Assembly: GCA_036506155.1 (NCBI GenBank)
Contig: DASXSF010000014.1
Location: 2,415-26,414, forward strand
Source of the DNA: Jatrophihabitantaceae bacterium
GTDB lineage: Bacteria; Actinomycetota; Actinomycetes; Mycobacteriales; Jatrophihabitantaceae
DNA: 24,000 nt
Direction: 5' to 3'
Position numbers and translations under genes: made by a program. The notes below the pieces were generated by a model. The model saw nothing but the letters and a program-made list of their open reading frames with translations. It was not told the DNA's origin and did no database searches. Positions 5,101 to 24,000 of the stretch are shown here, one piece after another (the first letter of the stretch is position 1; the number at the start of each line of letters is the position of its first letter).

Positions 5101-5411
5101 TCGGCGTGCCGGATGCGCCACTGACCGCGTGGGACTACCGAGTCACCGCGATGGCCGAGGCAATGATCCAGGCGCACTACCCGCTGCAGGCGCTGCTGTA
5201 CGACGTGGCCTTGCACCGGTTCCTGCGTTGGCGACTTGCCGACTACGACCCGGCCCGGCACCTAGGCGGAGTGCTGTACCTGTTTCTGCGCGGGATGTGC
5301 GGCCCGGACATCCGGTTTGCCGACGGCACCATCCCCGGGGTGTTCGCCTGGCAGCCGCCGGCGACCCTGGTGACGGCAGCGTCCGACCTCCTCGCAGCGG
5401 GCCGACGATGA
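2115..5411 (+). CDS. recB: Exodeoxyribonuclease V beta subunit RecB (UvrD-like helicase + PD-(D/E)XK nuclease), ~1098 aa
   Basis: Start taken as GTG 2115 (VTDARFDLLGELPRGTTVLEASAGTGKTF) rather than the ORF-track ATG 2028, which lies inside recC. Walker A is ASAGTGKTF and motif II is VLVDEFQDTD. The C-terminal nuclease motif is GSIDAVLRVDGRYVVVDYKTN. Confidence 0.92.
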   Translation: MTDARFDLLGELPRGTTVLEASAGTGKTFTIAGLMTRYVAEGVVPLDELLVVTFGRAATQELRDRVRERLVTARDGLRDVAAARAGDDQLLRHLATGSDSDVDSRRQRLVAALASFDAATVVTTHQFCQQMLIGLGTAGDVDAHSVLVENLDDLVTEVVQDLYLRKWGHGDVLDPPMNLKTAQELARTVVEDGQAILVPDVDDDNLAGLRVRFAHAVRDEVDRRKRARRVLGFDDLLTRLQQTLADPQTGPAAVARLRGRYRIVLVDEFQDTDPVQWDVLRMAFHGAATLVLVGDPKQAIYAFRGADVQAYLAAAELADHRATLGQNWRSDPDLLRGLDALFRGAALGDPRIVVGPVSAAHAGRSLESAEAPVRVRLVQREGSETPGVDTARRLVVQDVVREVVGLLNSQKTLHPRENTPGRPLRPADIAVIVRTNAQLDLVHEALLAARVPSVRRTTSSVFRTSAAGDWIVLLEALEQPHRSGRLRRLAVSPFVGWDAAALEGNDVDELGLRLRHWLRMYEERGVAALLETITRDERLPERLLGQVDGERRLTDLRHVAEALHAASMTGQLGLTAGLEWLRHRVEEAEEDSSVERGRRLDSEAAAVQVVTVHASKGLEFPVVLAPFGWDKHVFDPEIPLFHEESSGRRVRNVGGRNSLGFRHDQARHRNEEFGEDLRLLYVALTRAQSQVITWWAPSTRNTVCAPLHRLLFTESPANGVPERRQVPSDSRALAGASALAVRGCLSVSVASGGALSWEQPPTVARALSAATLGRLLDTSWRRTSYTALTAAVHDAAPAVASEPEVDQKDDEPITAMPAAAPGDLHDVISPMDALPGGTAFGTIVHAVLENVDPTSADLAGAVSEQVAAQLSWSGLAELDHDQLTAALLPALRTPLGDIVDGRTLADIAPQDRLTELDFELPVRGGDRPDGTSRLVELADLLHEHLRTDDPLAGYADLLSDPVLSEVVFKGYLAGSIDAVLRVDGRYVVVDYKTNRLGVPDAPLTAWDYRVTAMAEAMIQAHYPLQALLYDVALHRFLRWRLADYDPARHLGGVLYLFLRGMCGPDIRFADGTIPGVFAWQPPATLVTAASDLLAAGRR

Positions 5412-7291
5412 CGTCCCTTCACGTCGCGCGAGCCGCCGGTCTGCTCGGTGTATTCGACCAGGCGGGCATCCTCGCCCCGGCCGATGTACACGTCGCAATG
5501 CGACTTGGCGCGCTGACCGGCGAGAACGACGACCGAGTGCTCCTCGCGATCGCGCTGACCGTTCGCAACACCAGGCATGGCTCGGTTGTCCTCGACCTCG
5601 CCGACGCAGCCACGACCGTCACAGCGGATGCGGACGATTCGGAACTGATCGAGAACGGCGAGCTGTCCTGGCCTGCTCCCGAGGAGTGGATCGCCGCCTG
5701 CGCAGCAAGTCCGGTTGTCGCTGACGCCCCGGGCGGTTCACCTGTGCGTCTCGTCGGCTCCCGTCTCTGGCTGGATCGCTACTGGCGCCAAGAGGCCCAG
5801 GTCGCCGAGGAGCTCTTGCATCGAAGCGCGCAGCGCCCGGCCGATCTCGACCTGGCCGTCCTCGGCTCCGATCTGGAGTCCCTGTTCAGCAGCACGTCGG
5901 ATGCCGACCAGCGCCTGGCCACCTGCGTCGCTGCATTGTCGCGGGTCAGCGTCATCGGCGGCGGACCGGGCACCGGCAAGACAACAACCATAGCGCGGCT
6001 GATCACAGCGCTTCGCCGGCAGCGCCCCGAGCTTCGCATCGCACTCGCCGCCCCTACCGGCAAGGCGGCAGCCCGGCTGGAGGAGGCGGTGCGATCGGCC
6101 AGCGGATCGCTTACCGCCCACGACCGCGGGCAGCTCGCGGGCATGTCCGCCTCCACGCTGCACCGCCTGCTCGGCCGGCGCCCGGGCGTCGCCAGCCGCT
6201 TCCGCCACGACCGGGAGAACCGACTGCCGTTCGACGTGGTGATCGTCGACGAGGCCTCGATGGTGTCGTTGACCCTGATGGCACGGCTTCTCGAGGCGCT
6301 TGCCCCGCCGGCTCGCCTCGTTCTCGTCGGCGACCCCGATCAACTCGCCTCCGTCGAAGCCGGTGCCGTGCTCGGTGATCTCGTGGAACACGACGACGTG
6401 GGCCGCCGCACCGAGTCCTTTCGCGCCATGCTCCAGGAAGCGATCCCTGGCCTGGACTGTCCCGTGCGCCAGAGCACACCCGCAGCGGCGCTTCGGGAAT
6501 CAGTAGCACTGCTGCGGACCGTGCACCGCTTCGGGGCCGGCGGACCGATTGCCCATCTGGCAGAGCACGTCCGGGCTGGCCGCGCCGATGAGACACTCGC
6601 CCTGTTGACCGATCCACCAGACGGCATAGCGTTCCACCTGACGCCCGACGACGAACCAGTGTCCGGTGCCGCACTGGAGGCCCTGCGCGGACAACTCGTG
6701 CACGAGAAGGCGGTCATCGACGCGGCCCGATCGGGAGACGTCGAGCATGCGCTCGATGCACTGGAACGTCATCGCATGCTCTGCGCACACCGCGCCGGGC
6801 CGCGCGGGGTGCGGCACTGGAGCGACGCCATCGAACGCTGGCTGGCCGCGGACGATCCATTGCTGACGCCGCGCCTCGACGGGCGATACGCCGGGCAGCC
6901 GCTGCTCGTGACGTCAAACGACTACGAGAACAGCCTTTACAACGGCGACACCGGCGTCGTCATAAACCAAGGCGATGAACTTGCCGCCGCCTTTCGCCGC
7001 GGCGGCGAGCCGGTCATCCTGCCGCTAGTGCGGTTGTCCGAGGTCCGCCCGATGCACGTGATAACCGTGCATCGCGCGCAAGGAAGCCAATTCGAGGAAG
7101 TCACCGTGCTACTCCCCCCAGCAACCTCGCCCCTCGCGACCCGCCAGACCTTCTACACCGCGATCACCCGCGCATCGAAGCTCGTCCGCCTGATCGGCTC
7201 GCAAGAGGCCGTCCTCGCCAGCGTCAACAGGCGAGCCGCAAGAGCGACCGGTCTGCGCGACCGCCTCGCAGGCCGCCTGGGAGCAGCTTAG
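5408..7291 (+). CDS. recD: Exodeoxyribonuclease V alpha subunit RecD (SF1 helicase), ~627 aa
   Basis: ATG 5408 overlaps the recB stop (ATGA, 5408-5411). N-terminus is MTSLHVARAAGLLGVFDQAG. Walker A is GGGPGTGKTTT, Walker B is VVIVDEASMV, and the late helicase motif is ITVHRAQGSQFEEV. The ORF-track start at 5129 lies inside recB. Confidence 0.92.
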   Translation: MTSLHVARAAGLLGVFDQAGILAPADVHVAMRLGALTGENDDRVLLAIALTVRNTRHGSVVLDLADAATTVTADADDSELIENGELSWPAPEEWIAACAASPVVADAPGGSPVRLVGSRLWLDRYWRQEAQVAEELLHRSAQRPADLDLAVLGSDLESLFSSTSDADQRLATCVAALSRVSVIGGGPGTGKTTTIARLITALRRQRPELRIALAAPTGKAAARLEEAVRSASGSLTAHDRGQLAGMSASTLHRLLGRRPGVASRFRHDRENRLPFDVVIVDEASMVSLTLMARLLEALAPPARLVLVGDPDQLASVEAGAVLGDLVEHDDVGRRTESFRAMLQEAIPGLDCPVRQSTPAAALRESVALLRTVHRFGAGGPIAHLAEHVRAGRADETLALLTDPPDGIAFHLTPDDEPVSGAALEALRGQLVHEKAVIDAARSGDVEHALDALERHRMLCAHRAGPRGVRHWSDAIERWLAADDPLLTPRLDGRYAGQPLLVTSNDYENSLYNGDTGVVINQGDELAAAFRRGGEPVILPLVRLSEVRPMHVITVHRAQGSQFEEVTVLLPPATSPLATRQTFYTAITRASKLVRLIGSQEAVLASVNRRAARATGLRDRLAGRLGAA

Positions 7292-7360
7292 GCCGACGTG
7301 CTGCCACGCGCGGCGGCTATCTAGTCGGGGAGGAGTGTCAACGCCTCGACGTGGCGTGGC

Positions 7361-9884
7361 CTACCGCCGTCGGGGGTCGGGGAAGCCGAGACGAACGTAG
7401 CCGGGCGCGCGCTTCGCTAACGATGAGGCGAGCACGCCGGTGCGGGCGTCGTGGTAGTCGTGGACCTCCGCCGTCTCCTTGCCTGGATGTGCTCGCAGGA
7501 TGCGCCCGACGTACTGCTCGAGCGGGGCTTTGAAGGCGATGGGTGCGGTGAGGAAGAGGGTGTCCAGCGCGGGGCAGTCGAAGCCTTCGCCGATGTAGGA
7601 GGCGGTTGCAACCGCCAGCAGCGGTTGTCCTTCGGACGGTTTGGTGAGCCTGGCTAGGGCGGCGGCTCGCGCTCTGGCGCCCATTCCGCCGCGCAGCAAG
7701 ACCGGATCGTGCCCGTGTTCGCGGAGCGCGGCGTCGAGGCGTTCGAGATGGGTAGTCCATCGGGTCAAGACGAGGCAGTTGCGGCCGCGGGCGAGTGCGT
7801 CGAGGACGTCGTCGACGATCTGCCGGTTGCGGTCCTCGTCCGCGGCAAGGTCGCGGTAGACGGCCGGCATGCCGCCCGGCGCGGACGGCTCGATGCTGCC
7901 GTTGTAGGTGAACGCGGTTGAGTGGACCTGCAAGACGGGGTGCGGTGGGGCGAGCTCGGTGGATCGGCTGGTCAGCGTGCCAGGTTCCGGGGGCCTCATC
8001 GTGTATCGGGCCGGCCCGAGCTGCAGCCCGATGAGATCGTCGAGTTGGTCGCGCCGGTACGGGGTCGCGGTCAGGCCGATCCAGCGTCGGGCCGGGATCT
8101 GCTTGACCGCACGCTCGAATGCTGCGGCGGGTACGTGGTGGCATTCGTCGACGACGACAAGCCCGTAGCCAGCCGTTAACGCGCGGATGTCGTCGTGGCG
8201 GACCAGCGATTGCAGCATGGCGACATCGACGGTGCCGCGGGTCTTCCTGCGTCCGCCGCCGAGCTGCCCGGCGTTGACTCCAAGGTGTTCGGCGAGCCGG
8301 CTGCGCCACTGGTCGGCCAGGGCTTTCCGGTCGACGAGCACCAAGGTTGTGGTTGCGTGCCGCGCGATGAGCGCGCAGGCGATGACCGTCTTTCCGGCAC
8401 CGGGGCGGTGCGACGAGAACGCCGAGGTCGTGTCCTGCCAGGGCGTCGACGGCGGCCTGCTGCGCGGGTTCGAGGATCGCCGCCGACTCGTACTCTCTGT
8501 CTGTTCCGGTGCTGCGTTCGTCGATGATCTCCAATCGGCTTCCTGCCTGCATTGCCACGTCGCCGAGCCGGTCGAGCAACCCGCGGGGTAGTACGAGGCT
8601 GCCGTCGAGGGTTTCGTCATAGTTGACGAGGAACCGGGGCACGTTCCATGTGGAGGCACGTAGGCGCTGCCGTTCGTAGAACACCGGGTTTGGCATCGAG
8701 GCGGCATGCTTGAGGGTCGCGGCCAGTGCCGGTGTGAGGTCTGCGCCGTGAACAGTGACGCCGGCGCCCAGGCGAACGTGCACGATGGGCGGGATCTGTG
8801 GGACGGTGCGGGTCGCGGTCGGCTCCGCGAGCCGGGTTACCTCGGCGCCGACGGCGACGCGGCCGAATCGCCCGACGAGCCGCTTTGCCTCTCGCGGGGT
8901 CAGGCGAGGCAGGCTGGACAGATACGCCCACTGGTCGGCGAACGGTTCCAGTGTGGCGACGTCGAGGAACACCGTCGCCCCGTGATCGCGGTGGTGGCGA
9001 TGCAGCGGCGCAGCGATCAGGTTGCCGATACTGCCGGTGGCAGGCAGCACGTCCTGCGACGGGAACAGCCGGTCATAGCTCGTCAGACTCATGTGGCCGC
9101 GGATGGACATTGCCTCGCGGAGTAGCCCGGTCCCGATCTGGCGGGCGGTGCTGGCCGGCACCGCTGTGCTGAAGAAGATCCACACATGCGCGCCCGTGCC
9201 CGAGCGAGAGACCTCCAACCCAGTGGCCACCCCCGCCGCGTGGGCTGCCTTCAGGTAGGCCAGGGCATCCAGCATCGCCGTCCGTCCGTCGAAGTCGGCG
9301 GCCAGCCACCAGCAGAGGTCCCCGTCCAGCAACGGGTACAGCCCGATCTCCGTCCCCCCCGACAGGTGCGCCACAACCACGTCGTCAGTCAGCGGCAGGT
9401 AGTCGCGGCGCGCGGCATCCTTGTGCCAACGGCCACGAACGGCGGGCATCCAGCCCGACCTGCCCGTGCGCCGGTTCTCCCACCGGACCGCGTACACGTC
9501 CGCGCGCGCGGCGAACAACGCTCGGTAGAAGGCGACCTTCTTCTCCGACGACGACCCGTTGTCCACCGAACCCGGCGGTGCGTCGAAGATGCCGGTCTGC
9601 GTCGGACCTGGCAGCCGCGCCTCACCGGGGCGCAGATCGAGCAGCCGCTGCAACCGAGCGTTCTCGGCCCGAAGTCGGTCCAATTCGGCGTACAGCGCAA
9701 CCGCGTCGCTCCCGTCGGCACCGCCTCGCGCATTCCACCCGCCGCGCACGTCGGCCACGCTATGCACCCGAGACCCATCGACGGCAGCGGCTCCGCGGCG
9801 AACCCGATCCTTTATGCGGCGGATCACCGATCCGGCGACTTGCCGCGAGGCAGGGACAGGACCACTCAGCGAATTTCCACCCAT
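7361..9884 (-). pseudogene. AEP (primase-polymerase) domain fused to DExH/XPB-like SF2 helicase, interrupted by a +1 nt frameshift at the G4 run 8402-8405 (about 840 aa if repaired)
   Basis: Protein-like sequence passes from the frame of ORF 7338..10034 to the frame of ORF 7361..8707 at ...GVLVAPP|[15 protein letters not shown] motifs are WWLAADFDG, SRSGTGAHVWIFF and SYDRLFPSQD. Helicase motifs are [23 protein letters not shown] and QYVGRILR. The total length 2524 nt equals 3n+1. The start is uncertain: ATG 9884 is the most upstream plausible one, and several in-frame GTGs lie downstream. Confidence 0.75.
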
Positions 9885-9897
9885 CCACAGTTCTCTA

Positions 9898-9934
9898 CAG
9901 CGGTACCTTGCCGTGAATCGGGCGTCCACCGCTG
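9898..9934. promoter_or_regulatory. Inverted repeat CAGCGGT-N23-ACCGCTG in the 59-bp divergent gap between the AEP-helicase and integrase genes
   Basis: Perfect 7-bp arms at 9898-9904 and 9928-9934 in the only intergenic space available for both promoters. The function is inferred, not demonstrated. Confidence 0.3.
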
Positions 9935-9943
9935 CCGGTCGGA

Positions 9944-11065
9944 ATGCACGGCCGGATCGACTTTCATCATGCCGGGTTGGGGCGAGTTCGGGCCCGTACA
10001 AGGGTCCGTGGCGCTGATGGCGTGCTGCGGGCAATCACGCGTTGGGGTGGCAGCGAAGCAGAGGCCGATGCAAGGTTAATGGTCGCGGTACGCGAGCAGG
10101 CCTGCCAGAACGACGGAGTACTGGCCGCCCACACCCGGCTCACCTCGGCCACGCAGGTCTGGCTGAGCGAGCTGGCGCGGTCCGAGCTGGCCGCCAGCAC
10201 TCGGCAGCTGTACCAGGCTGCGGCCCGCTGCTACCTGATTCCCACGCTCGGGTCGCTGTGCATCGGTGAGCTCACCGTCACGGTCATCGAACGCGCGCTG
10301 GCGTCGATCCGATCCCAGCATGGGCCGCAGCCCGCGCGGCCCGCACGCCGAGCCCTGTCGAGTCTGGGCCACTGCGCCGTGCGCCACGGTGCGCTGCCAG
10401 TCAACCCGGTGCGCGACACCCGCCCGATCGCCTGCCCGCGCAAACGGGTCCGAGCGCTCACCGTTGGCGAGGCCGCCGAGGTGCTGGCACGGCTGCGCGC
10501 CGATCCGACCGCCCTCCGGCTGGACCTGCCCGACTTCGTGGAGTTCATGCTGGGCACCGGCGTGCGCATCGGCGAAGCTTGCGCAATCCGTGAAGCAGTT
10601 CTGGACCTCAAGGCCGGCACCGTGCACATCAACGCCACCGTGGTCCGCGTCGACGGCGTCGGGCTGGAGATCCAGCCACGGACCAAGACCGCCCGATCCG
10701 AACGGATCTTGCACTTGCCGCCACATCTCCTGCGTATGCTCAGGCGGCGCCCGCTTAACGGCCACCCGCCAGGACCGGCTGGGGTCAACTTCACCTCCCC
10801 CGGGCTGATCCGCGACCCGTCCAACACCCAGGCCGACCTGCGCCAGGCCCTTGACCGTGGCGGCTACCCGTGGGTGAGCAGCGACGTCTTCCGCAAGACC
10901 GTCGCATCTCGCCTCGACGACGAGGGCTACGGCATCCGCCATATCGCCAACCAGCTCGGGCACAGCCGACCGTCAACCACGATGGACTACTACCTCGGCC
11001 GGCGTGCGCTCACCACGATCAACTTCTCCCGCGCGCTCGAGCCGCTCTTAGCCGCGAGTGAGTAA
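9944..11065 (+). CDS. int: Tyrosine recombinase / phage-type site-specific integrase (373 aa from ATG 9944)
   Basis: Box I Arg in LGTGVRIGEACAI. The C-terminal catalytic region is VSSDVFRKTVASRL...IANQLGHSRPSTTMDYYLGR (R, H, Y present). The N-terminal RVRGADGVLRAITRWGGSEAEADARL resembles the arm-binding domain of actinobacterial integrases. The exact start is uncertain. Confidence 0.85.
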   Translation: MHGRIDFHHAGLGRVRARTRVRGADGVLRAITRWGGSEAEADARLMVAVREQACQNDGVLAAHTRLTSATQVWLSELARSELAASTRQLYQAAARCYLIPTLGSLCIGELTVTVIERALASIRSQHGPQPARPARRALSSLGHCAVRHGALPVNPVRDTRPIACPRKRVRALTVGEAAEVLARLRADPTALRLDLPDFVEFMLGTGVRIGEACAIREAVLDLKAGTVHINATVVRVDGVGLEIQPRTKTARSERILHLPPHLLRMLRRRPLNGHPPGPAGVNFTSPGLIRDPSNTQADLRQALDRGGYPWVSSDVFRKTVASRLDDEGYGIRHIANQLGHSRPSTTMDYYLGRRALTTINFSRALEPLLAASE

Positions 11066-11066
11066 G

Positions 11067-11099
11067 TGGTTCGTTTATGGTTCGTTTCTGGTTCGCACC
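11067..11099. repeat. Three tandem 11-bp repeats TGGTTCGTTTA / TGGTTCGTTTC / TGGTTCGCACC
   Basis: Read directly. The array begins 2 nt after the integrase stop (TAA 11063-11065) and ends 29 nt before the tRNA-derived segment. The period is 11 bp, one helical turn. Confidence 0.7.
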
Positions 11100-11127
11100 C
11101 ACGGGCGCGGACTAGAATCCCCTTATA

Positions 11128-11170
11128 TGGTGGGCCCCGAGGGACTCGAACCCTCAACCTACGGGTCGAT
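11128..11170 (-). other. Orphan tRNA 3' half (variable arm + T arm + acceptor 3' strand + encoded CCA): att-site remnant, not a functional tRNA
   Basis: The minus strand reads ATCGACCCGTAGGTT-GAGGG-TTCGAGT-CCCTC-GGGGCCC-A-CCA, a canonical T stem-loop with a 7-nt acceptor strand, discriminator A and CCA. A stem-forming extra arm (GACC/GGTT) suggests a type II, Leu-like tRNA. No complementary GGGCCCC 5' acceptor strand and no anticodon stem-loop can be folded in the next 100 nt. Confidence 0.7.
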
Positions 11171-11259
11171 CTTCTGCCTTCGCCGCGAGCATCTTTGGCC
11201 TATTTTACTTGGGTATTCGCGTCGCCAGCGGCCCCGAATCACTCTGGCAGGCGGCATTT

Positions 11260-11280
11260 CATGTCACGTTCCATGTCACG
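11260..11280. repeat. Direct repeat CATGTCACG x2 (12-bp spacing), each preceded by TTC
   Basis: tTTCATGTCACGtTCCATGTCACG read directly in a non-coding, lower-GC stretch. Function unknown. Confidence 0.4.
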
Positions 11281-11566
11281 CGAGCTGCACCGGGTAAGCC
11301 ATCGACACCACAGCGTCTGGCGCTCGGCGCGGGCTCGTCGCTGGTCGTCGAAATCATCTCCGGTTCGACATGGAATCCGCAGACTGTCAGTGTCGGTCGC
11401 ACCAGTGGGTGAGACCTGCCCGCTGGGCGCAGCGACGCTGCCGTCTGCGATGTCGCGGGCAGACTCTGCCAGGCCAGTAGAGCCAGAGCCGGCGGTGACC
11501 TCAATGCCGATCACGGTCGGTAGGACGCCGTGCCATGCGTTGGTGGTACCGCATGTTCTCGTTCTC

Positions 11567-11584
11567 CGCGCAGCGAACTGCGCG
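11567..11584 (+). terminator. GC hairpin CGCGCAG-CGAA-CTGCGCG followed by CTGTTGATT (intrinsic-terminator-like)
   Basis: Perfect 7-bp stem, tetraloop and a moderately T-rich tail on the plus strand. No intact upstream plus-strand gene other than int, 500 bp away. Confidence 0.3.
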
Positions 11585-11817
11585 CTGTTGATTCGCTGCC
11601 GGCGGAGCGGCGCTACGTAGGAACCGGACGGGGGAGGGTGGCCACCATGGGGCCACCCTTCGCGGTGGCGGCGACGCGTGATGTGTGTGAGCGCGGAAAC
11701 TAGGCATAACCCGGCCGCCGCAGGGCGCTGGTCCGCCGCCCGCAAGGGGATCCTCTGTGCGAGAGTCCGGATTCGAATGAAGGCGACCAAGGCTCCAGCG
11801 TTGCGCCTCTGTCGTGA

Positions 11818-12432
11818 TCACCTTGGTGGCTGGCGGCGTTGGGGGTAGATGGTTTCTTCCTGTTCGAGCATGGAGACGAACTGCTCGATCCGCCGGCGAC
11901 GGGTCTCGGCCCGCTTGGCGGTCTCGATGCGATACAAAACGGCGTAGCGGTTCTGGCCGCTGAGGGTCTTGAACATCTCCCGCGCGTCAGGATTCGCGGC
12001 GAGGGCCGCGGCGAGATCGGGCGGTACCGCGATGCTCGCCGGGCCGGCGTACGCGGCCTCCCAACGGCCGTCGGCCTTGGCCCGCTCGATCGCGGCTAGG
12101 CCGGACACATGCATGCGCCCCTCAGTGATCAACCGCTCGGCGATCGCGGCGTTGCGCTTCGACCACCCGCTGCGCGGGCCGCGTGGCGTGAAGCGCTGCC
12201 GGTAGCTGCGCTCGTCGCCACCGCGGACCTGCCCGTCGATCCAGCCGTGGCACAGCGCCTCCTCCAGCGCCTGGTCATAGGTGAGGCTCGTGGGCTCGGT
12301 CGCGCCCTTCTTCGCGAGAGTCAGCCACACACCGCTGTGATCACTGTGATGTTCCCGGAGCCACGCTCGCCAGGCGGCGGTGTCGTCGACCGTCAAGGGC
12401 GGTAACTCGCTTCCCACACTGCAACCTTGCAT
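11818..12432 (-). CDS. YdeI/OmpD-associated family protein (204 aa from ATG 12432)
   Basis: Family-typical WRAWLREHHSDHSGVWLTLAKKG...LTYDQALEEALCHGWIDGQVRGGDERSYRQRFTPRGPRSGWSKRNAAIAERLITEGRM...AKADGRWEAAY...ETRRRRIEQFVSML. The 98-aa N-terminal extension of the ORF (to 12726) is not family-like. Confidence 0.8.
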   Translation of the reverse strand: MQGCSVGSELPPLTVDDTAAWRAWLREHHSDHSGVWLTLAKKGATEPTSLTYDQALEEALCHGWIDGQVRGGDERSYRQRFTPRGPRSGWSKRNAAIAERLITEGRMHVSGLAAIERAKADGRWEAAYAGPASIAVPPDLAAALAANPDAREMFKTLSGQNRYAVLYRIETAKRAETRRRRIEQFVSMLEQEETIYPQRRQPPR

Positions 12433-12922: not shown

Positions 12923-13648
12923 CTAGCGGACCTCTAACTCGCGCACGCCGAGGTCGACGAGCTGGGTGCGGTACCGGTCGAGGCGGTGCGCATCTGGCTC
13001 CGGCCAGTGCCGCGCTTCGGCGCGCACCCCGTGCTGCCGGAAGCCGATGACCTTGATCCGCATCTGCGGGTCGAGGTCGAGCAGCCAGTCCACGGTCTGG
13101 GTGAGCGTCGGATGGTCATCATTGATGCCGGGGATGAGCAGCAGCCGCACCTCATAGAGCTTGCCGGCGGCGGCAACCTGCCGGATCGCGTCCAGCACTT
13201 GCGCGTTGCACGAGCCGGTGAGGTGCTCGTGCAGCGCCGGGTCGAGTGCCTTCAAGTCGAGCATGACGCCGTCGGTCACCGGAAGCAGCGACGTCCATGC
13301 GGCTGCCGGCGCCGCGCCGTTGCTGTCGATGAACCGGGTCAGGCCCGCCAGATCCGGGTCGGCACGCAGCGTGGTGAACATCGCTCGGACGAACTCCGCC
13401 TGCAGGGTCGCCTCGCCGCCGGAGACCGTCATGCCAGCGAGATATGGCGCTAACGGCCGCACCTCGTCGAGGACCTCGTCCACCTCCACCAGGCGCGCCC
13501 GTGGCGTATGCCGCGGGATCGTTTGCGGATTGTGGCACGCGAGGCAGTTGAGGTTGCAGCCCTGTAGGAACACGACGAACCGGTTGCCCGGGCCGTCCAC
13601 CCAGGAAAACCGGACGACGTCAGCCAGCAGGCCCTGCGGCGCTTTCAC
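12923..13648 (-). CDS. yjjW: YjjW-type glycyl-radical-enzyme activating protein (radical SAM), 241 aa
   Basis: RFSWVDGPGNRFVVFLQGCNLNCLACHNP carries the CX3CX2C cluster motif, in the same N-terminal context as PFL-activase-type proteins. TVSGGEATLQ is also present. The start overlaps the end of the upstream glycyl-radical enzyme gene by 29 nt. Confidence 0.9.
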   Translation of the reverse strand: MKAPQGLLADVVRFSWVDGPGNRFVVFLQGCNLNCLACHNPQTIPRHTPRARLVEVDEVLDEVRPLAPYLAGMTVSGGEATLQAEFVRAMFTTLRADPDLAGLTRFIDSNGAAPAAAWTSLLPVTDGVMLDLKALDPALHEHLTGSCNAQVLDAIRQVAAAGKLYEVRLLLIPGINDDHPTLTQTVDWLLDLDPQMRIKVIGFRQHGVRAEARHWPEPDAHRLDRYRTQLVDLGVRELEVR

Positions 13649-15173
13649 CGCTGATCACCCGCTTCGGCGTCCGGGCGTCGACATGGTTGTTCGCGACCGA
13701 GCCGGCGGCGAGCAAGGTGCTCTGATGGCGGGCACCCTCATCGGCGAGCTTGGCCAGATCCGACTTGCGAACGAGGTATCCGGTGATGCGAATGAAGTCG
13801 TTGCCGTCGAGGTTAAAGGTGAAGTCGCGCATGCCGGCCCGGAACGCGCCGCGGATCACGTCGACAATGGCTTGCGGGTTGCGCTTGGCGGTGTCGTCGA
13901 AGGCGAGCACGTCGCTGACGCCAGCGGCGAACCACTTGTGGTGCGGCGCGACGGTCATCAGGTGATCCGGCAGTGACGGCTCGGTGCCGATCGGGATGCG
14001 CGTGCCGGCCGTGACGTTCTGGTCGAGGTCGATGCCGGGCTGCGAGTGCAGGAAGCAGCGGCCGTCGTTGCCTGCGCAGTAGGGCATCGGGCGCGCTGCC
14101 ACAAGGTGCACGACGCGTTCAACGAGGCGATACGAGAGTTCGTTCGCAGCCTTGTCGTGGCCATAGCGTGCGTCTGGCCGACCTTCGCGCTCGATGAGCA
14201 GGTCCACGCCTTCGGCGAGCCCGAACAGACCGAACATGGCGGCGAAGTTGTCGAGCGAGATGAGTCCCTCATGGGTGAGCCAGTTGTGTTCGTAGAACCT
14301 CGCCTGCTCGACGAGGTACCTGATCCGCGACTCGGCCAGTTCCGCGGCGAGCTCGACGTACTTCGGCAGCGTCCGGGTCAGGAACGAGACCGCCCCACTG
14401 TCGTGCCGCAGCACGGCCTCCTTGAGGTTCAACCGCACGAGGGTGTGCGATCCGCCGCCGATCTTGAGCGAGTTGTAGCAGCTCACGGCGGCGTACCGCT
14501 CGCCGAGGTCGTGCGTCATCAACCGGTGCGATACGAAGTGCGGTTTGCCGCACGCGAACACGGTCTGGACGGCGTCCAGCAGGTAGCTGTCCGGCGTGCG
14601 CTCAGGGTCCACACGCAGCGTCAGGTTAGGCGCGACCTGCAGCAGTTCCCGCTCGAGACGCAGGATCGTCCGTCCCACCCGGCTGTCGTCCGGGCCGAGG
14701 TCGGTGTGCGTGAACGCGTCCGGGAACATCCTGTCCAGGCTGATCCAGAACAACCGCAGTCGGCGGTAGAGATCCGCGTCGCTCACACCTTCGATGTACG
14801 GCGCGAGCAGCGTGTCCAAGTCGCCGAGGTACACCGGGTAGCCGGTGATGGACGGCACATGGGTGCAGAGGATGAGCAGGAAGGCCAGCGCTTCGTCCAG
14901 GTCGCGGGCTGGCGGCAGTTCCAGGAACGCCGAGCCGTTGCGCAGCGCCACGATGTAGTCCGGTACCACGTAGCGCGGGCGGTACGGCGGGTTGCCCTCG
15001 TACATGTCGCAGATGACCCGCTTGTCGAGGGCCTGCGCGCACTCGTCCGAGACCGGCGGCGGATCCACCGCGTTCTCGGCCAGTGTGGCGAGCTTCTGGA
15101 CACGCTGGCGATAAGTCAGCGCCGGATCGTCGACGACGCCGCGGACCAAGGTTTGGAGCTCAGCCTTCTCCAT
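13620..15173 (-). CDS. yjjI: YjjI-family (DUF3029) glycine radical enzyme, 517 aa
   Basis: Length and gene pairing match E. coli YjjI/YjjW. The C-terminal glycyl-radical-type motif is NDFIRITGYLVRK (R-[IV]-x-G-[YF]). A Cys-containing loop reads MPYCAGNDGRCFLHSQPG. Confidence 0.88.
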   Translation of the reverse strand: MEKAELQTLVRGVVDDPALTYRQRVQKLATLAENAVDPPPVSDECAQALDKRVICDMYEGNPPYRPRYVVPDYIVALRNGSAFLELPPARDLDEALAFLLILCTHVPSITGYPVYLGDLDTLLAPYIEGVSDADLYRRLRLFWISLDRMFPDAFTHTDLGPDDSRVGRTILRLERELLQVAPNLTLRVDPERTPDSYLLDAVQTVFACGKPHFVSHRLMTHDLGERYAAVSCYNSLKIGGGSHTLVRLNLKEAVLRHDSGAVSFLTRTLPKYVELAAELAESRIRYLVEQARFYEHNWLTHEGLISLDNFAAMFGLFGLAEGVDLLIEREGRPDARYGHDKAANELSYRLVERVVHLVAARPMPYCAGNDGRCFLHSQPGIDLDQNVTAGTRIPIGTEPSLPDHLMTVAPHHKWFAAGVSDVLAFDDTAKRNPQAIVDVIRGAFRAGMRDFTFNLDGNDFIRITGYLVRKSDLAKLADEGARHQSTLLAAGSVANNHVDARTPKRVISGESAAGPAG

Positions 15174-19264: not shown

Positions 19265-19999
19265 CTACACGCTGATCTGCCCCGACACCGTGGCCGCCGC
19301 CTTGGTCGCACTCGGCGAGCCGGTCGCGGCCGCCAGACCACCTTGAGCGGGACGGCGCCGCCGCTCTGGGGTCCGCAAGGTGCTGCAGTCCCCGATTGCC
19401 CCGAGCAGCAGGTCGCGCAGCAGCGAGTCCGGGTTGGGTATGCAGGCGCGGGCGATGCCCTGCACGGCATAGCGGACGGTGGTAGGCGCCGCATGCCGAC
19501 GGAATGCCCTTTGCGACATGTGGAGATTGCGCGTGTACCGGGTTGCCCAGGTGGCGGCCGCAGGAGCGGCGGCGAGTGCGTCACCACTCTCCTGGCTCAG
19601 CGGCGCACCGGGACAGCCGTCCACCTCGGCCCGCAACCGCTCGCACGTCAGGACGGCGACAGCCATGATCTGCTGCCGCTCTGCCGCCGCGACGGGCAGC
19701 GCGGTCCGTGCGGCCCGCAGCGAGATGGCAAGGTCGATGCGCAGATCCTCCCCGGTTAAACCAATCATGTCGGGAACGAGTGCAACCAGTGCCTGTCGAG
19801 CCTCATCAGAGCTGAAGTCGTTGACCTGCCGCGCGAGCTCGCCGAGCAGTGGGTGCGTGCACGCCGGATGGTCGCTCCACTTCTCGCCAGCCAGATAGGA
19901 CGCATACTCCATGACGCATGCACCGTTGCGGGGTCTGCGGTGCTTTCCCCGAGACAGCAGCGGAAGAAACTCCGTCGAACGACCACGCTCCGTCGACAT
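19265..19999 (-). CDS. Conserved hypothetical protein (244 aa), function unknown
   Basis: A protein-like, non-repetitive sequence with the N-terminal block EFLPLLSRGKHRRPRNGACVMEYASYLAGEKWSDHPACTHPLLGELARQVND. GGGGTGA lies 6 nt upstream of ATG 19999. An alternative GTG start is at 20008. Confidence 0.7.
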   Translation of the reverse strand: MSTERGRSTEFLPLLSRGKHRRPRNGACVMEYASYLAGEKWSDHPACTHPLLGELARQVNDFSSDEARQALVALVPDMIGLTGEDLRIDLAISLRAARTALPVAAAERQQIMAVAVLTCERLRAEVDGCPGAPLSQESGDALAAAPAAATWATRYTRNLHMSQRAFRRHAAPTTVRYAVQGIARACIPNPDSLLRDLLLGAIGDCSTLRTPERRRRPAQGGLAAATGSPSATKAAATVSGQISV

Positions 20000-20311
20000 G
20001 CCAATCACCCCAATTTTCGCGAGCGCTACCTACGAGTCTGCACCCGACTCCCGTGTGCACGATCAACCGTCCCTGGTTCGAAGCGTTGGCCCGAGACCCG
20101 GCATGCGCGTTTTCCTCGCCAGCGTCACAGCGCTGAGTGACCAGCTTCTCTCGCAGCTCGCCCAGGTTGACCACCGCGACCACGAGGCCCTCACGGCAGC
20201 CGGCATCCACTGCCTGATAGGGCTCTCTCGCGTCGAACGACGCCATCCTGCGGCTGCTGGGCCGACTCGGCCCGATGACAACCAGCCCGCCCGCGGCCGG
20301 CGTGGTCGAGG

Positions 20312-20425
20312 TACGGATCGGCCTAAGACCGGCGCGCGCAACTGCCGAAACGCCCGTCGGCTGACGCCGTGTTCGTCGCGTGGGCGCTCGATGTTCTGTT
20401 CGATGAACGTGCCGGTCAGAGTCGC
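20312..20425 (-). pseudogene. AraC/XylS-family HTH fragment (about 38 aa, no start, no ligand-binding domain)
   Basis: The minus strand reads (stop)-PATLTGTFIEQNIERPRDEHGVSRRAFRQLRAPVLGRSV. This resembles the first HTH of AraC regulators (FIExNL...GxSxRxLxRLFxxxxGxS). The frame is closed by TAA just upstream and loses sense downstream. Confidence 0.3.
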
Positions 20426-20442
20426 CGGTTACGGTAAATGCT

Positions 20443-21753
20443 GTGCCGGCGCGGTGGAGCGTTGATCAGGTGCTGGCGCTTGCGCCGGACGCTGCGTCGG
20501 CGGCTGCGGCCAGGAAGGTGGCTGCGGCGGTCGTGTGGATGGGCGCTGGTTGCGTGAGCGGACTCGTCTGGGGCCGCTATGTCGGTTCCGGAACGTTGCG
20601 TTACGAGACGGTGGTTGAGCCGGGCGTTCCGGCCTACGGGTGTTCCTGTCCGTCGCGGAAGTTCCCGTGCAAGCACGCGCTGGGGTTGCTGCTGCTCTGG
20701 TCCAGTGGCGACGTGCCGGACGCCGACGAGCCGGCCGACTATGCCGTCGCTTGGCAGCAGGCTCGGGCGGAACGAGCAGCGGCGACGGCTGCGCGACCGA
20801 GAGGCGAGCGGGACGAGGAGGCGGCGGCCAGGCGCGCCGCGCGGCGTCGTGAGCGCGTAACGGTCGGTCTGGCCGAGCTGGAACTGTGGCTCTGCGACCA
20901 GGTTCGGAGCGGACTGTCAGGGGTGTCCGGCACCTACTGGCACGCCGAGCCGGCGGCCGCCCGGATGGTGGACGCCCAGGCTCCGGGTGTGGCGGCGACG
21001 CTGCGGCGACTCAGCGCGGTACCGGCGTCGGGCGAGGGCTGGCCGCAGCGCCTCCTCGCTGGCTATGCGCGTGTTCATCTGCTCGCTCGGGCGCACACGC
21101 AACTCGACACGCTGCCGCCCGACCTCGCGGCGACGGTCCGCAACTACGTCGGCTATTCGGTCAGCCGGGAAGCGGTTCTAGCCGAGCCGGCAGTGCGAGA
21201 TCAGTGGCTTGTCGTCAGCGTCCGAGACATTGCGGACGCGGCTATTCCGGCTCGCCGCACGTATCTGCGCGGCGACAAGACTGGCCGGTGGGCGCTCGTC
21301 CTCGCGTTCGACCCGCAAGGCCAGTTCGGCGGCGACCTCGACGCCGCGTTCGAGGCCGGGACGGCGCTGGATGCCGAGCTGCACTACTACCCCGGCCGTC
21401 CGCCGTTGCGGGTTGCGGTCGGGGCTCGGCACGGCGAACCGGTTGCCGGTCCGCCGCCGCAGCCGCGGCGCCGCCTCAGCGAACTGTTCGACGAGTGGGC
21501 CACCGTGCTGGCCCTCGACCCGTGGCTTCCGGAGTGGCCGACGGTGCTGTGCGGTGTCCCGGTGCCCTGTGAACCGAGGTGGCGATTCGCCGACGAGACC
21601 GGAGCATCGGTGCCGCTGCAGACCGGTGGCATCGACCCATGGATCCTCGCGGCCGTCTCAGGGGGCGCCCCGGTCACCGCCGCGGGCGAATGGTCGGCCG
21701 ACGGATTCCGCCCATCGACGGTGTGGCACCGCGAAACGGCGGTGCCGCTGTGA
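20443..21753 (+). CDS. SWIM zinc finger family protein, 436 aa
   Basis: N-terminus is ARWSVDQVLALAPDAASAAAARKVA. The SWIM motif is YGCSCPSRKFPCKHALGLLLLW (CxCx6CxH). The stop overlaps the next gene's GTG (GTGA 21750-21753). Confidence 0.88.
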   Translation: MPARWSVDQVLALAPDAASAAAARKVAAAVVWMGAGCVSGLVWGRYVGSGTLRYETVVEPGVPAYGCSCPSRKFPCKHALGLLLLWSSGDVPDADEPADYAVAWQQARAERAAATAARPRGERDEEAAARRAARRRERVTVGLAELELWLCDQVRSGLSGVSGTYWHAEPAAARMVDAQAPGVAATLRRLSAVPASGEGWPQRLLAGYARVHLLARAHTQLDTLPPDLAATVRNYVGYSVSREAVLAEPAVRDQWLVVSVRDIADAAIPARRTYLRGDKTGRWALVLAFDPQGQFGGDLDAAFEAGTALDAELHYYPGRPPLRVAVGARHGEPVAGPPPQPRRRLSELFDEWATVLALDPWLPEWPTVLCGVPVPCEPRWRFADETGASVPLQTGGIDPWILAAVSGGAPVTAAGEWSADGFRPSTVWHRETAVPL

Positions 21754-23234
21754 CCACCTACGACGAACTCGTGGCGGCCGCGACGGTCGGCATCGCCCAG
21801 CGTCCGCTATCGGTCACTCGGCTGCCGCAGCCGGCGGGCGAGCACAGCACCGTCTTCGACGCGGACCCGGCGATGTGCCTGCTCGACGCGGTCGCGCTAC
21901 TCGACGCGGCCCAGCGCGCCGGTCGGCTTTTCGCTACGCCGATCCCGCGCCCGGCTCCGGCGCCTTCTGACGGCGTCCCCGAGTTGCCACCCCTCGCCAG
22001 TCTCATCGTCGCGGACCTGTTGCGGACCGGGCCGGCTGAGCTGCTGGCTGACCTTCTCAGCGCCGCAGCACACGCCGGCTTCCGTGCGCCACCCGCTCTC
22101 CTGCCGACGCTGCTGTCTGCCGCCGCCACGAACTCCGCACTTCGCGACGGCGTCGCGGCCACGCTGGGCGAACGAGGACGCTGGCTCGCTGCGCATCAGC
22201 CGGAGTGGCTCCGCGTCGTCGACTCCGGCGTCGTGCCAGTGGCCGACGATGCCTGGGAGACCGGGCGGTTCGCAGAACGGCGCAGCTGGCTCGCCCAACT
22301 CCGGCGGCGCGATCCTGATGCCGCGCGCGGGCTGCTCGCTGAGGGGTGGATGCGCGAGACGGGTGAGGATCGTGCCGAGCTGATCACGGTTCTCGCTGAC
22401 AGACTTTCCGCAGCGGACGAGTCGTTCCTCGAGGCGGCCCTGGACGACCGGATGGCTGAAGTTCGGCGGCGCGCGGCACGGCTGCTCCAGTTGCTGCCCG
22501 GCTCGGCGTACCAGGCGCGGGCGCGCGTACGCGCCGCAGAAGTCCTGCATCGCGAACGGCGCGGCGTCCGCCGTCGACTCGTCGTCACGCTGCCGGACGA
22601 GCTTGACGAGTCGGCACGGCGCGACGGCTTGCACGTGCGCCCCCACACGCCACGAACCGGCGTGAAGACCTGGCTGCTGATGCAGATCGTCGCTGCGGCA
22701 CCGCTGGAGCTGTGGACCGAGATCCTCGGCGCCGCCCCGCGCGACATCGTCGCCCTGCCGATCGCGGACGGCTTCGCGCCGGACGTGCACGCTGCCTGGC
22801 GGCGCGCCGCCGTGCGCCAGCGCAACGCCGAGTGGGCCCGCGCGCTCCTGGACATGAGTGAGCACGGGCCGTCCGACGCCGAGCTCGCCGCCGTGCTGCC
22901 GCACACCGAGCGCCAGGCGCGCGTGGTGGCTCTCCTCCAGCGGAGCGCCGAGGCCGTCCGGCTACCGGCCGAGGTGCAGTCCTGCCCACCGCCCTGGGCT
23001 CCGCAGCTTGCGGAGGCCGTCCTCGCCTATCTCGAGCGTGAGCTGCGCGGTGGTCGATCCGTCCCGACCGGTGCCCTGCTGGCCACGGTTGCGCGTGCAC
23101 TCCCGACCGACCACGCGGCGCCGCTTTGCCGACTCGCCGAGGAAGCACCGCTTACCACCGGCTGGCTGCGTGCGCTGCGACGGACAGCGGACATCATCGA
23201 ACTGCGCCGCCGATTCCACGAGGAGCTGCAGTGA
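21750..23234 (+). CDS. DUF5691-like Ala/Leu/Arg-rich helical protein, 494 aa
   Basis: GTG 21750 gives VTTYDELVAAATVGIAQRPL. The ORF-track start at 21579 lies inside the SWIM gene. It is coupled at both ends by GTGA overlaps. The family assignment comes from my recollection of the conserved SWIM-DUF5691-AAA gene order and was not tested. Confidence 0.75.
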   Translation: MTTYDELVAAATVGIAQRPLSVTRLPQPAGEHSTVFDADPAMCLLDAVALLDAAQRAGRLFATPIPRPAPAPSDGVPELPPLASLIVADLLRTGPAELLADLLSAAAHAGFRAPPALLPTLLSAAATNSALRDGVAATLGERGRWLAAHQPEWLRVVDSGVVPVADDAWETGRFAERRSWLAQLRRRDPDAARGLLAEGWMRETGEDRAELITVLADRLSAADESFLEAALDDRMAEVRRRAARLLQLLPGSAYQARARVRAAEVLHRERRGVRRRLVVTLPDELDESARRDGLHVRPHTPRTGVKTWLLMQIVAAAPLELWTEILGAAPRDIVALPIADGFAPDVHAAWRRAAVRQRNAEWARALLDMSEHGPSDAELAAVLPHTERQARVVALLQRSAEAVRLPAEVQSCPPPWAPQLAEAVLAYLERELRGGRSVPTGALLATVARALPTDHAAPLCRLAEEAPLTTGWLRALRRTADIIELRRRFHEELQ

Positions 23235-24000
23235 CGATCATCGAATCCGCGCTGCTTCGTCCGCACGCCGAGCAGGCGTATGCGGCCGAGCTCGCCGCGC
23301 TCGCCACCGCCGATGACCGACCACGCCCGCCGTCCTGGCGGCTGTCGCCGCACGCCGTCGTTGACTACGTCCTGGGCACAACGACGGCGGATGGGACGGT
23401 CGTCACCCCGAAGTACGTCGGGCCCAGGCGGCTGATCGAGGTCGCCGTGGCCACCCTCGCCACCGACCGTGCCCTGCTGTTGCTCGGCGTCCCGGGTACC
23501 GCGAAGACGTGGATCTCGGAGCATCTCGCCGCGGCCATCTCGGGGGATTCGAGGCTGCTCGTGCAGGGCACGTCCGGCACGGCGGAGGAGGCGATCCGCT
23601 ACGGGTGGAACTATGCGCGGCTGCTGGCCGACGGCCCGACGCGGGCGGCACTGGTCCCGTCGCCGGTCATGACCGCGATGAGCGAAGGACGCATCGCCCG
23701 CGTCGAGGAGCTCACCCGGATCCCGTCCGACATCCAGGACGCGCTGATCACCATCCTCTCCGAGAAGACGCTTCCCATTCCGGAGCTGGGCACCGAGGTC
23801 CAGGCGAGGAAGGGCTTCAACGTCATCGCCACGGCCAACGACCGCGACCGCGGAATCAACGAACTGTCCTCGGCGCTGCGCAGGCGGTTCAACACCGTCG
23901 TCATGCCGCTGCCGGCGAGTGAAGAGGACGAGGTGGCGATCGTCGCGCGGCGCGTCGAATCGCTCGGTCGCGCCTTGGAGCTTCCCGAAGTGCCGTCCGC
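23231..24000 (+). CDS. AAA+ ATPase, MoxR/AAA_5 (dynein-related) type, N-terminal 256 aa (3' end outside window)
   Basis: Not in the supplied ORF track, because it has no stop in the window. My translation from GTG 23231 is VTIIESALLRPHAEQAYAAELAALATADDRPRPPSWRLSPHAVVDYVLG...ALLLLGVPGTAKTWISEHLAAAISG...EGRIARVEELTRIPSDIQDALITILSEKTLPIPELG...FNVIATANDRDRGINELSSALRRRFNTVVMPLP. It shows Walker A, the Walker B region and sensor 1. Confidence 0.88.
   Translation, partial: MTIIESALLRPHAEQAYAAELAALATADDRPRPPSWRLSPHAVVDYVLGTTTADGTVVTPKYVGPRRLIEVAVATLATDRALLLLGVPGTAKTWISEHLAAAISGDSRLLVQGTSGTAEEAIRYGWNYARLLADGPTRAALVPSPVMTAMSEGRIARVEELTRIPSDIQDALITILSEKTLPIPELGTEVQARKGFNVIATANDRDRGINELSSALRRRFNTVVMPLPASEEDEVAIVARRVESLGRALELPEVPS

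Follow-up and report, generated by a model that had tools for sequence, protein, structure and literature searches.

The 24,000-nt stretch of Jatrophihabitantaceae bacterium contig DASXSF010000014.1 analysed here (the window) ends within what is very likely a five-gene, translationally coupled operon, and its promoter-proximal part lies inside the window. Three plus-strand open reading frames (ORFs) stand in tandem and fill positions 20443–24000, with a GTGA stop/start overlap at both junctions (Table 1). They encode a SWIM zinc-finger protein, a DUF5691 protein and the first part of a YehL-type MoxR AAA+ ATPase. A DUF5682 (YehM-like) protein and a von Willebrand A (VWA) protein of the VWA_CoxE family (YehP-like) would follow beyond the window edge. 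The five products would act together as a single ATP-driven remodelling machine of several subunits, and the operon would be the layout that actinobacteria have of Escherichia coli yehLMPQ. We hold this identity of the operon and of the machine with high confidence. The window copy is a typical collinear member of the module, an ordinary new member of which only the first half is seen. A preliminary description, made from the letters of the window, had reported the three genes, and the finding is confirmed as real and correctly described. All coordinates and motifs that it gave for 20443–24000 are present on re-check of the sequence, and its SWIM, DUF5691-like and MoxR/AAA_5 assignments are correct by Pfam. 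The translational coupling that it proposed is also real, as seen from the GTGA at both window junctions and from recurrent 4-nt overlaps in relatives. Its phrase 'undescribed multi-protein machine' is overstated. Both DUFs are curated Pfam families named by NCBI, yehLMPQ is a counterpart, and YehL has given its name to a MoxR subfamily, one of the seven that are recognised (PMC3893208).

The three proteins encoded in the window

All three reading frames behave as coding sequence by codon-position GC, and the GC content of the locus is ~70–73%. A GAGGAG Shine-Dalgarno sequence lies 8 nt 5' of the GTG start of gene 3. Scans for a promoter, a terminator and a tRNA around the operon start found nothing.

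Gene 1 scores 25.3 bits against Pfam SWIM (PF04434, cut-off 19.6). The CxCxnCxH signature of the SWIM finger is present as C67-x-C69-x6-C76-x-H78, and C67, C69, C76 and H78, the predicted zinc ligands, are invariant across 46 aligned homologues. There are 4715 homologues at E ≤ 1e-5, and their N-termini line up with the start at 20443. The AlphaFold2 model of the protein has a predicted local distance difference test score (pLDDT) of 87.8. The predicted layout comprises an N-terminal β-sheet with the finger, a ~55-residue helix, a helical domain and two C-terminal β-rich domains. Sequence and profile searches of the PDB with the SWIM protein gave no match, and Foldseek searches of the PDB with the models of the SWIM and DUF5691 proteins gave no match at E ≤ 0.001. 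The weak Foldseek matches of the SWIM-protein model resemble the oligonucleotide/oligosaccharide-binding (OB) fold, with E ≥ 0.05, and nucleic-acid binders of the OB-fold type (RPA, HIN domains, uS12 and EF-P) dominate the list. We take nucleic-acid binding by the SWIM protein as a hint from the model, not as a finding.

The product of gene 2 covers the entire Pfam DUF5691 profile (PF18944, positions 1–491 of 491) with E 1.4e-127 and 427.6 bits (cut-off 27). Position 21750 is the supported start of this gene, because the match begins at residue 6 of the 494-residue product and homologues are 487–504 residues long. An earlier start at 21579, taken from the ORF list, was rejected on the start of the Pfam match and on the N-termini of homologues. 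Alanine, leucine and arginine make up 18.6%, 14.2% and 12.1% of the protein. Its AlphaFold2 model is built of helices only (pLDDT 88.9), and in the PDB Foldseek finds only generic HEAT/ARM α-solenoids, with a best E of 0.013 and template modelling (TM) scores ≤ 0.32. We read the protein as a probable HEAT/ARM-like solenoid that may serve as a scaffold. A PDB search with a single DUF5691 sequence found no match, and a search with a profile returned only noise (E about 0.3). The second protein lies outside the characterised families, as had been supposed: its family is DUF5691 itself, and its fold matches are only the generic HEAT/ARM-like ones. A profile search of a 50%-identity library of 1.84 billion representatives finds 6450 DUF5691 clusters, and an exact-sequence look-up with the window protein found no identical copy on record. 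Two natural fusions, P0301 and P0329 (965 and 970 residues), join a full-length SWIM protein to a full DUF5691 that follows it. The SWIM part aligns with gene 1 over its full length at 41% identity in P0301 and 35% in P0329; a gene-calling or frameshift artefact is possible. These fusions support a physical pair of the SWIM and DUF5691 proteins.

Gene 3 matches Pfam AAA_5 with E 2.2e-38. The fragment holds 256 of ~364 residues, and the C-terminal lid (~108 residues) lies past the window edge. It is 88–89% identical to the full-length 364-residue relatives in loci L004 and L001. The window ATPase shares 46% identity with E. coli YehL over 231 aligned residues (residues 1–227, E 2e-67), and the similarity takes in the ~75-residue N-terminal extension. 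By this pairwise identity, the ATPase appears to belong to the YehL subfamily. Judged from alignment, its Walker A, Walker B and sensor-1 motifs and its arginine-finger region are intact. Residues G86, P88, G89, T90, A91 and K92 of Walker A, R157, E159 and E160 of Walker B, I199–N203 of sensor-1, and R218, R219 and F220 are invariant in 10 ATPases from six phyla. Where Asp-Glu is usual in Walker B, this motif has two glutamates, a feature that YehL shares. In the PDB, the L001 homologue comes closest in sequence to the midasin AAA ring (8e-17), followed by NorQ (1e-8). The Pfam model bpMoxR gives 26.2 bits on the window ATPase, under its cut-off of 27.

A 184-residue plus-strand ORF at 19911–20465 overlaps the start of the SWIM gene by 23 nt and was tried as a sixth gene. 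Locus L004 has an ORF of equal length at the same place. The candidate was rejected because the two ORFs are unrelated in sequence (E 0.15) and neither has a Pfam match.

Conservation of the five-gene module

A scan of one genome per species found a DUF5691 relative in at least 520 species. Hidden Markov models were built for the five module proteins and applied to 80 fetched loci. SWIM, DUF5691, AAA_5, DUF5682 and VWA_CoxE are all present in each of the 70 genome loci with enough flank, and the remaining 10 loci are apparently broken by contig ends. Two layouts are seen among the 70 complete loci. The collinear order of the window is found in 32. The other 38, all from Streptomyces, Kitasatospora and allies, have the genes split into a divergent pair of operons, VWA<DUF5682<AAA_5 and SWIM>DUF5691. 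The linkage is kept through this rearrangement, which is strong evidence for a functional unit. The loci of Streptomycetaceae are syntenic: sucCD flank the module on one side, and a B12-binding gene and pcrA/uvrD flank it on the other. Beyond Actinomycetota, the five-gene set is found in Armatimonadota, Anaerolineae, a Deinococcus plasmid, Rhizobium megaplasmids and a cyanobacterium.

Overlaps of 4 nt recur at every type of junction in these relatives: SWIM–DUF5691 (35 of 80 junctions), DUF5691–AAA_5 (31 of 38 collinear relatives), AAA_5–DUF5682 (31/76) and DUF5682–VWA (37/73). Metagenomic contigs whose DUF5691 is 60–68% identical to that of the window encode the SWIM (436 residues), DUF5691, AAA_5 (364 residues), DUF5682 (~737 residues) and VWA_CoxE (~395 residues) proteins, with a 4-nt overlap at every junction. 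In the closest informative relative (DUF5691 77% identical), AAA_5 is followed by a 4-nt overlap and a gene of at least 485 codons that is truncated by the contig end. The continuation with DUF5682 and VWA genes, which the preliminary description had named, holds in all relatives with enough flank and is not visible in the window itself.

The VWA partner in L004 matches Pfam VWA_CoxE with E 1.7e-50. The DxSxS motif of the metal ion-dependent adhesion site (MIDAS) is present in 74 of 74 VWA partners of relatives and also in YehP. In DUF5682, the N-terminal motifs GIRHHGPGS, REAxMR and VVCGAWHAP are conserved (L004:12603-13382 and eight homologues). They resemble motifs of the TraB/PrgY/TIKI putative metalloproteases, with insufficient statistical support. 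Two of nine DUF5682 N-terminal fragments give sub-threshold matches to Pfam TraB_PrgY_gumN (PF01963; E 0.086 and 0.38), and hhalign of DUF5682 with E. coli YbaP of the TraB family aligns a single GAxH motif (E 0.1). Sequence and profile searches of the PDB with DUF5682 returned noise-level matches only.

One locus from an Anaerolineae metagenome-assembled genome (L088:11549-13088) has two extra genes between DUF5691 and the ATPase, one of them encoding a protein with EAD8 (an effector-associated domain) and pentapeptide repeats. A PIN-domain gene lies just 3' of the same module. Together with the EAD8 gene, it is the sole conflict-like embellishment observed.

The counterpart in E. coli

By Pfam, E. 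coli K-12 yehL encodes AAA_5, yehM DUF5682 (E 2.4e-98), yehP VWA_CoxE (E 2.3e-72) and yehQ SWIM. The four families are common to E. coli and the window-type module, and in both the genes are tightly packed on one strand. By this shared family content, the window module is the counterpart of yehL-yehM-yehP-yehQ. There are also clear differences. The SWIM gene is last in E. coli, whereas it is first in the window. YehQ has 614 residues and two SWIM fingers, and it shows no pairwise similarity to gene 1 outside the finger. DUF5691 is missing in E. coli, and a 1210-residue DUF4132 protein (YehI) precedes the ATPase. Homology between gene 1 and YehQ beyond the finger, as a shared C-terminal domain, was tried and rejected, the match being no more than marginal (E 0.004, probability 8%).

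E. coli and Bacillus mycoides share the layout DUF4132, AAA, DUF5682, VWA, SWIM; on B. mycoides plasmid p322 (L092) a DUF4132 protein occupies the position of YehI. The DUF4132 protein is likely a fifth component of the enterobacterial/Bacillus layout. Both layouts keep AAA_5, DUF5682 and VWA, and these three therefore make up a constant core. The variable pair is SWIM and DUF5691 in one layout, and DUF4132 and the two-finger SWIM protein in the other. Comparison of DUF5691 with YehQ, YehI and DUF4132 detected no homology; the target alignments are shallow.

The E. coli module is present in 5353 of 5426 complete genomes (98.7%), almost always as a single chromosomal copy. In E. coli K-12 (L086:1475-8912), the WGR-domain gene yehF, the pseudogene yehH and the DUF4132 gene yehI lie directly 5' of yehL. 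Of these, yehF and yehH (a WGR-DUF4132 protein) bear the historical name molR, 'molybdate metabolism regulator'. A study on the prediction of +1 ribosomal frameshifts reportedly mentions yehP 39 times and is said to suggest a candidate site in this VWA gene. The E. coli yeh genes are also reportedly listed as silenced by H-NS/Hha in one study.

Orthologues in Streptomyces coelicolor and DNA topology

We take sucCD to be SCO4808 and SCO4809 in Streptomyces coelicolor, which pointed to SCO4801–4806 for the module. The published reverse primers for quantitative PCR (qPCR) were mapped to Streptomyces loci. Of 32 matches of the sco4804 primer, 30 fall within the DUF5682 gene, and in six species the primer has just one mismatch. 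The sco4805 primer maps to VWA genes in all eight matches. Primer mapping and synteny together identify SCO4803, SCO4804 and SCO4805 as AAA_5, DUF5682 and VWA. The layout suggests that the SWIM and DUF5691 genes correspond to sco4802 and sco4801.

The topA promoter is less active when Tn5 is inserted in sco4804 (Gongerowska-Jac et al. 2021, PMC8120823). This gene is described as encoding a hypothetical protein of 815 residues whose homologues occur in Alphaproteobacteria, Bacteroidetes and Cyanobacteria, and the insertion is polar on sco4805 (PMC8120823). Depletion of TopA raises sco4803–4805 about 8-fold, and overexpression of sco4804 causes a transient rise of topA and gyrB transcripts; SCO4804 shows non-specific DNA binding only and no binding to TopA (PMC8120823). 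The preliminary description had stated that, to its knowledge, such a cluster has no experimentally established role, and it had named published functional work on the cluster as a possible refutation. Partial work of this kind does exist, on the orthologous genes sco4803–4805, and the statement has to be qualified to that extent. The work points by an indirect route to DNA-topology homeostasis and gives an indirect phenotype, not a mechanism (PMC8120823). Our literature search found no paper on DUF5691, on DUF5682 or on VWA_CoxE with AAA_5, and SWIM with MoxR and vWA returned nothing relevant.

Proposed machine and alternative explanations

By analogy with RavA-ViaA, NorQ-NorD, CbbQ-CbbO and CoxD-CoxE, the ATPase would form a hexameric ring, and RavA-ViaA is the basis for expecting a hexameric, VWA-stimulated ATPase (PMC3893208). 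The VWA protein would be the adaptor of the ATPase, with the metal site of its MIDAS holding the target. AAA_5, DUF5682 and VWA would be the constant core, and the SWIM protein and the DUF5691 solenoid may form a heterodimeric target-recognition or scaffold module. In E. coli and Bacillus, the DUF4132 protein and the two-finger SWIM protein would take the place of this module. The target may be a chromosome-associated protein or nucleoprotein complex, and the machine would feed into DNA-topology homeostasis. The S. coelicolor orthologues are switched on as negative supercoiling rises and indirectly raise topA and gyrB transcription. We offer this specific target only tentatively, and it is more probably wrong than right. 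The explanation as a whole, with operon, remodelling machine and topology target, has a somewhat better than even chance.

Several points weigh against this explanation. The window ends before the DUF5682 and VWA slots, and the completeness of this copy is deduced from relatives whose DUF5691 is 60–77% identical. The comparison of DUF5691 with DUF4132 gave no homology, so gene position is all that speaks for a 'replaceable recognition module'. Support for a nucleic-acid theme in the SWIM protein is weak, with all OB-like Foldseek matches at E ≥ 0.05. The link to supercoiling comes from one study in one organism. There the effect on topA is indirect, with neither specific binding to the promoter nor an interaction with TopA; the supercoiling of plasmids did not change, and the analysis did not resolve polar effects (PMC8120823). 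The SWIM and DUF5691 genes are outside that study.

One alternative would be incidental adjacency or spurious ORFs, with no machine at all. GC-rich DNA does yield many long spurious ORFs in all frames, and the unconserved ORF at 19911–20465 indeed mimicked a sixth gene. However, all three ORFs have strong matches to curated families, coding-type codon-position GC and thousands of homologues, and their linkage persists across phyla and rearrangements. This alternative is already refuted, and we give it practically no chance. The preliminary description had hinted at nucleoside triphosphate (NTP)-dependent conflict systems. In an anti-phage or conflict system of this kind, the MoxR-VWA pair would act as sensor or switch, with the SWIM protein detecting foreign nucleic acid and DUF5682 as the effector, possibly a TraB/TIKI-like metalloprotease. 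The patchy cross-phylum distribution and the copies on large plasmids are consistent with such a role. In the window, genes for a tyrosine integrase and for AEP-TOTE, a conflict-system protein, are found ~9 kb upstream of the operon, mobile-element genes (ArdC-N, DUF397 and HTH_31) lie upstream in L004, and the Anaerolineae copy has its inserted EAD8-pentapeptide gene and adjoining PIN gene. The reported silencing of the E. coli genes by H-NS/Hha would also agree with such a role. The TraB/PrgY-like motifs of DUF5682 and the sub-threshold TraB_PrgY_gumN matches point in the same direction, but this similarity is not significant. Moreover, nine proteins compared with PADLOC-DB v2 gave noise only (IetA, E ≥ 0.004 over 30 residues), and the bpMoxR score is under the cut-off. 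The 70 loci contain no VMAP, β-propeller or recognised effector, apart from the EAD8 insertion in L088, and among 50,697 phage records only 1 carries DUF5682. Nearly all complete E. coli genomes have the module, as a core feature in one copy, and its chromosomal position is conserved across Streptomycetaceae genera, unlike that of typical variable defence systems. The hint towards conflict systems thus finds weak support at best, given the PADLOC result, the phage records and the core status in E. coli, and we consider a defence function improbable. A housekeeping remodeller fits better, because the module belongs to the E. coli core genome as a single copy, is syntenic in Streptomycetaceae and has no PADLOC match.

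A further alternative is a dedicated chaperone for insertion of a metal centre or cofactor, with DUF5682, DUF5691 and the SWIM protein as large substrate-handling subunits. It would resemble CoxD-CoxE (Mo-Cu CO dehydrogenase), NorQ-NorD (FeB of NO reductase), CbbQ-CbbO (Rubisco) or CobS-CobT-CobN (cobalt chelatase). Membership of the VWA partner in VWA_CoxE, clear for both the L004 protein and YehP, agrees with this role, and so do the intact MIDAS and the position of NorQ as second-best solved relative of the ATPase, after midasin. The combination of motor, VWA adaptor and large subunit also recalls the three-component chelatases, and the old name molR of the genes upstream of yehL points to molybdate metabolism. 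Yet the known MoxR-VWA maturases sit beside the gene of their client enzyme, whereas the genes that flank this module change from one examined lineage to the next, and it has no co-varying client. The sucCD, B12-binding and pcrA neighbours in Streptomycetaceae reflect chromosomal synteny, not a client. Apart from the structural zinc finger, no metal- or tetrapyrrole-binding domain was detected in any subunit. The sole phenotype on record concerns topA transcription and not a metalloenzyme (PMC8120823). We judge a cofactor chaperone to be as improbable as a defence system.

The remodelling machine with a topology-related target remains our preferred explanation. A bolder form of it is that the YehL-type module represents an unrecognised class of nucleoid or nucleoprotein remodeller with a core function from E. 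coli to Streptomyces. The MoxR-VWA motor would be targeted by the SWIM and HEAT-like adaptor pair (by WGR-DUF4132 and SWIM in enterobacteria), and the machine, by sensing supercoiling stress or responding to it, would reset the expression of topoisomerases. We regard this form as unlikely, though slightly less so than defence or cofactor insertion.

Features of the locus and its surroundings

Table 1. Genes, junctions and sequence motifs of the operon within the window
Feature	Position	Strand	Basis
Gene 1, SWIM zinc-finger protein, 436 aa	20443–21753	+	GTG start; ORF and Pfam
SWIM finger CSCPSRKFPCKH (CxCx6CxH), residues 67–78	20641–20676	+	Translation and homologue alignment
GTGA overlap, gene 2 start on gene 1 stop	21750–21753	+	Sequence
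Gene 2, DUF5691 protein, 494 aa	21750–23234	+	Pfam, full length
GTGA overlap, gene 3 start on gene 2 stop	23231–23234	+	Sequence
Gene 3, putative YehL-subfamily MoxR AAA+ ATPase, first 256 codons	23231–24000	+	Pfam and YehL identity
Walker A GVPGTAKT	23486–23509	+	Alignment
Walker B IARVEE	23693–23710	+	Alignment
Sensor-1 IATAN	23825–23839	+	Alignment
Arginine-finger region ALRRRF	23873–23890	+	Alignment

Elsewhere in the window, a string of recC (C-terminal part), recB and recD occupies 19–7291 on the plus strand. It looks complete, with RecC_C, UvrD-helicase and PDDEXK_1, and RecD_N and AAA_30 domains. On the minus strand, an 898-residue ORF at 7338–10034 carries the archaeo-eukaryotic primase domain of TOTE conflict systems (Pfam AEP-TOTE, E 4e-74). 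A 448-residue ORF at 7361–8707 (ResIII, Helicase_C) overlaps its 3' half in another frame, and beyond about 8836 in the downstream direction the helicase frame is the one that codon-position GC supports. The two ORFs look like a primase-helicase gene split by a frameshift; an assembly error, a pseudogene or programmed frameshifting could each account for this. A tyrosine recombinase/integrase gene (Phage_integrase, E 2.3e-13) adjoins the AEP-TOTE gene at 9944–11065 on the plus strand, and after it the GC content dips at 11001–12000 to 0.642, compared with about 0.69. The integrase and the GC dip may mark the edge of an integrated element. No tRNA gene was found anywhere in the 24,000 nt. A YjjI-like glycyl radical enzyme (Pfam E 5e-195) and a radical-SAM activase are encoded at 12923–15173 on the minus strand, in surroundings that are otherwise actinobacterial and high-GC.

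Comparison with known systems

The nearest system with phenotypes is sco4803–4805 of S. coelicolor, which contains orthologous AAA_5, DUF5682 and VWA genes and is the only member of the module for which phenotypes are known. It differs from the window in that the Streptomycetaceae module is split into two divergent operons. In the S. coelicolor study, the MoxR/VWA identity was not recognised, and the SWIM and DUF5691 genes were outside its scope. The DUF5691/DUF5682 clusters of Actinobacteria, the E. coli YehL subfamily and the sco4803–4805 supercoiling phenotype, unconnected in the literature that we searched, are joined here. An anonymous 'topA regulator' thereby becomes recognisable as an AAA+/MIDAS machine, and the question is open to E. 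coli genetics. The module is among the larger conserved gene sets still without a mechanism.

RavA-ViaA, NorQ-NorD, CbbQ-CbbO and CoxD-CoxE resemble the module in that an AAA+ MoxR motor is encoded with a MIDAS-bearing VWA partner. NorQ is a detectable sequence relative of the module ATPase, and CoxE belongs to the Pfam family of the module VWA partner. These systems have two components and lie beside a client enzyme, whereas the window-type module has three extra conserved subunits (SWIM, DUF5691 and DUF5682) and no conserved client gene. Ternary conflict systems of the vWA-MoxR-VMAP and MoxR-vWA-β-propeller types are reportedly described by Kaur et al. 2020, and PMC10910872 mentions them. 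Like the module, they combine a MoxR ATPase and a VWA protein with further dedicated partners. The window-type module differs from them by being core-genome rather than sporadic, by lacking VMAP, β-propeller or effector, and by having no PADLOC match. Midasin/Rea1, which acts in eukaryotic ribosome assembly, is one chain of ~4900 residues with six fused AAA modules, whereas the window-type ATPase has one AAA module per chain and the helical and MIDAS parts are separate proteins. The resemblance is architectural and not one of orthology: in both, AAA_5, helical repeats and a MIDAS come together in one functional unit.

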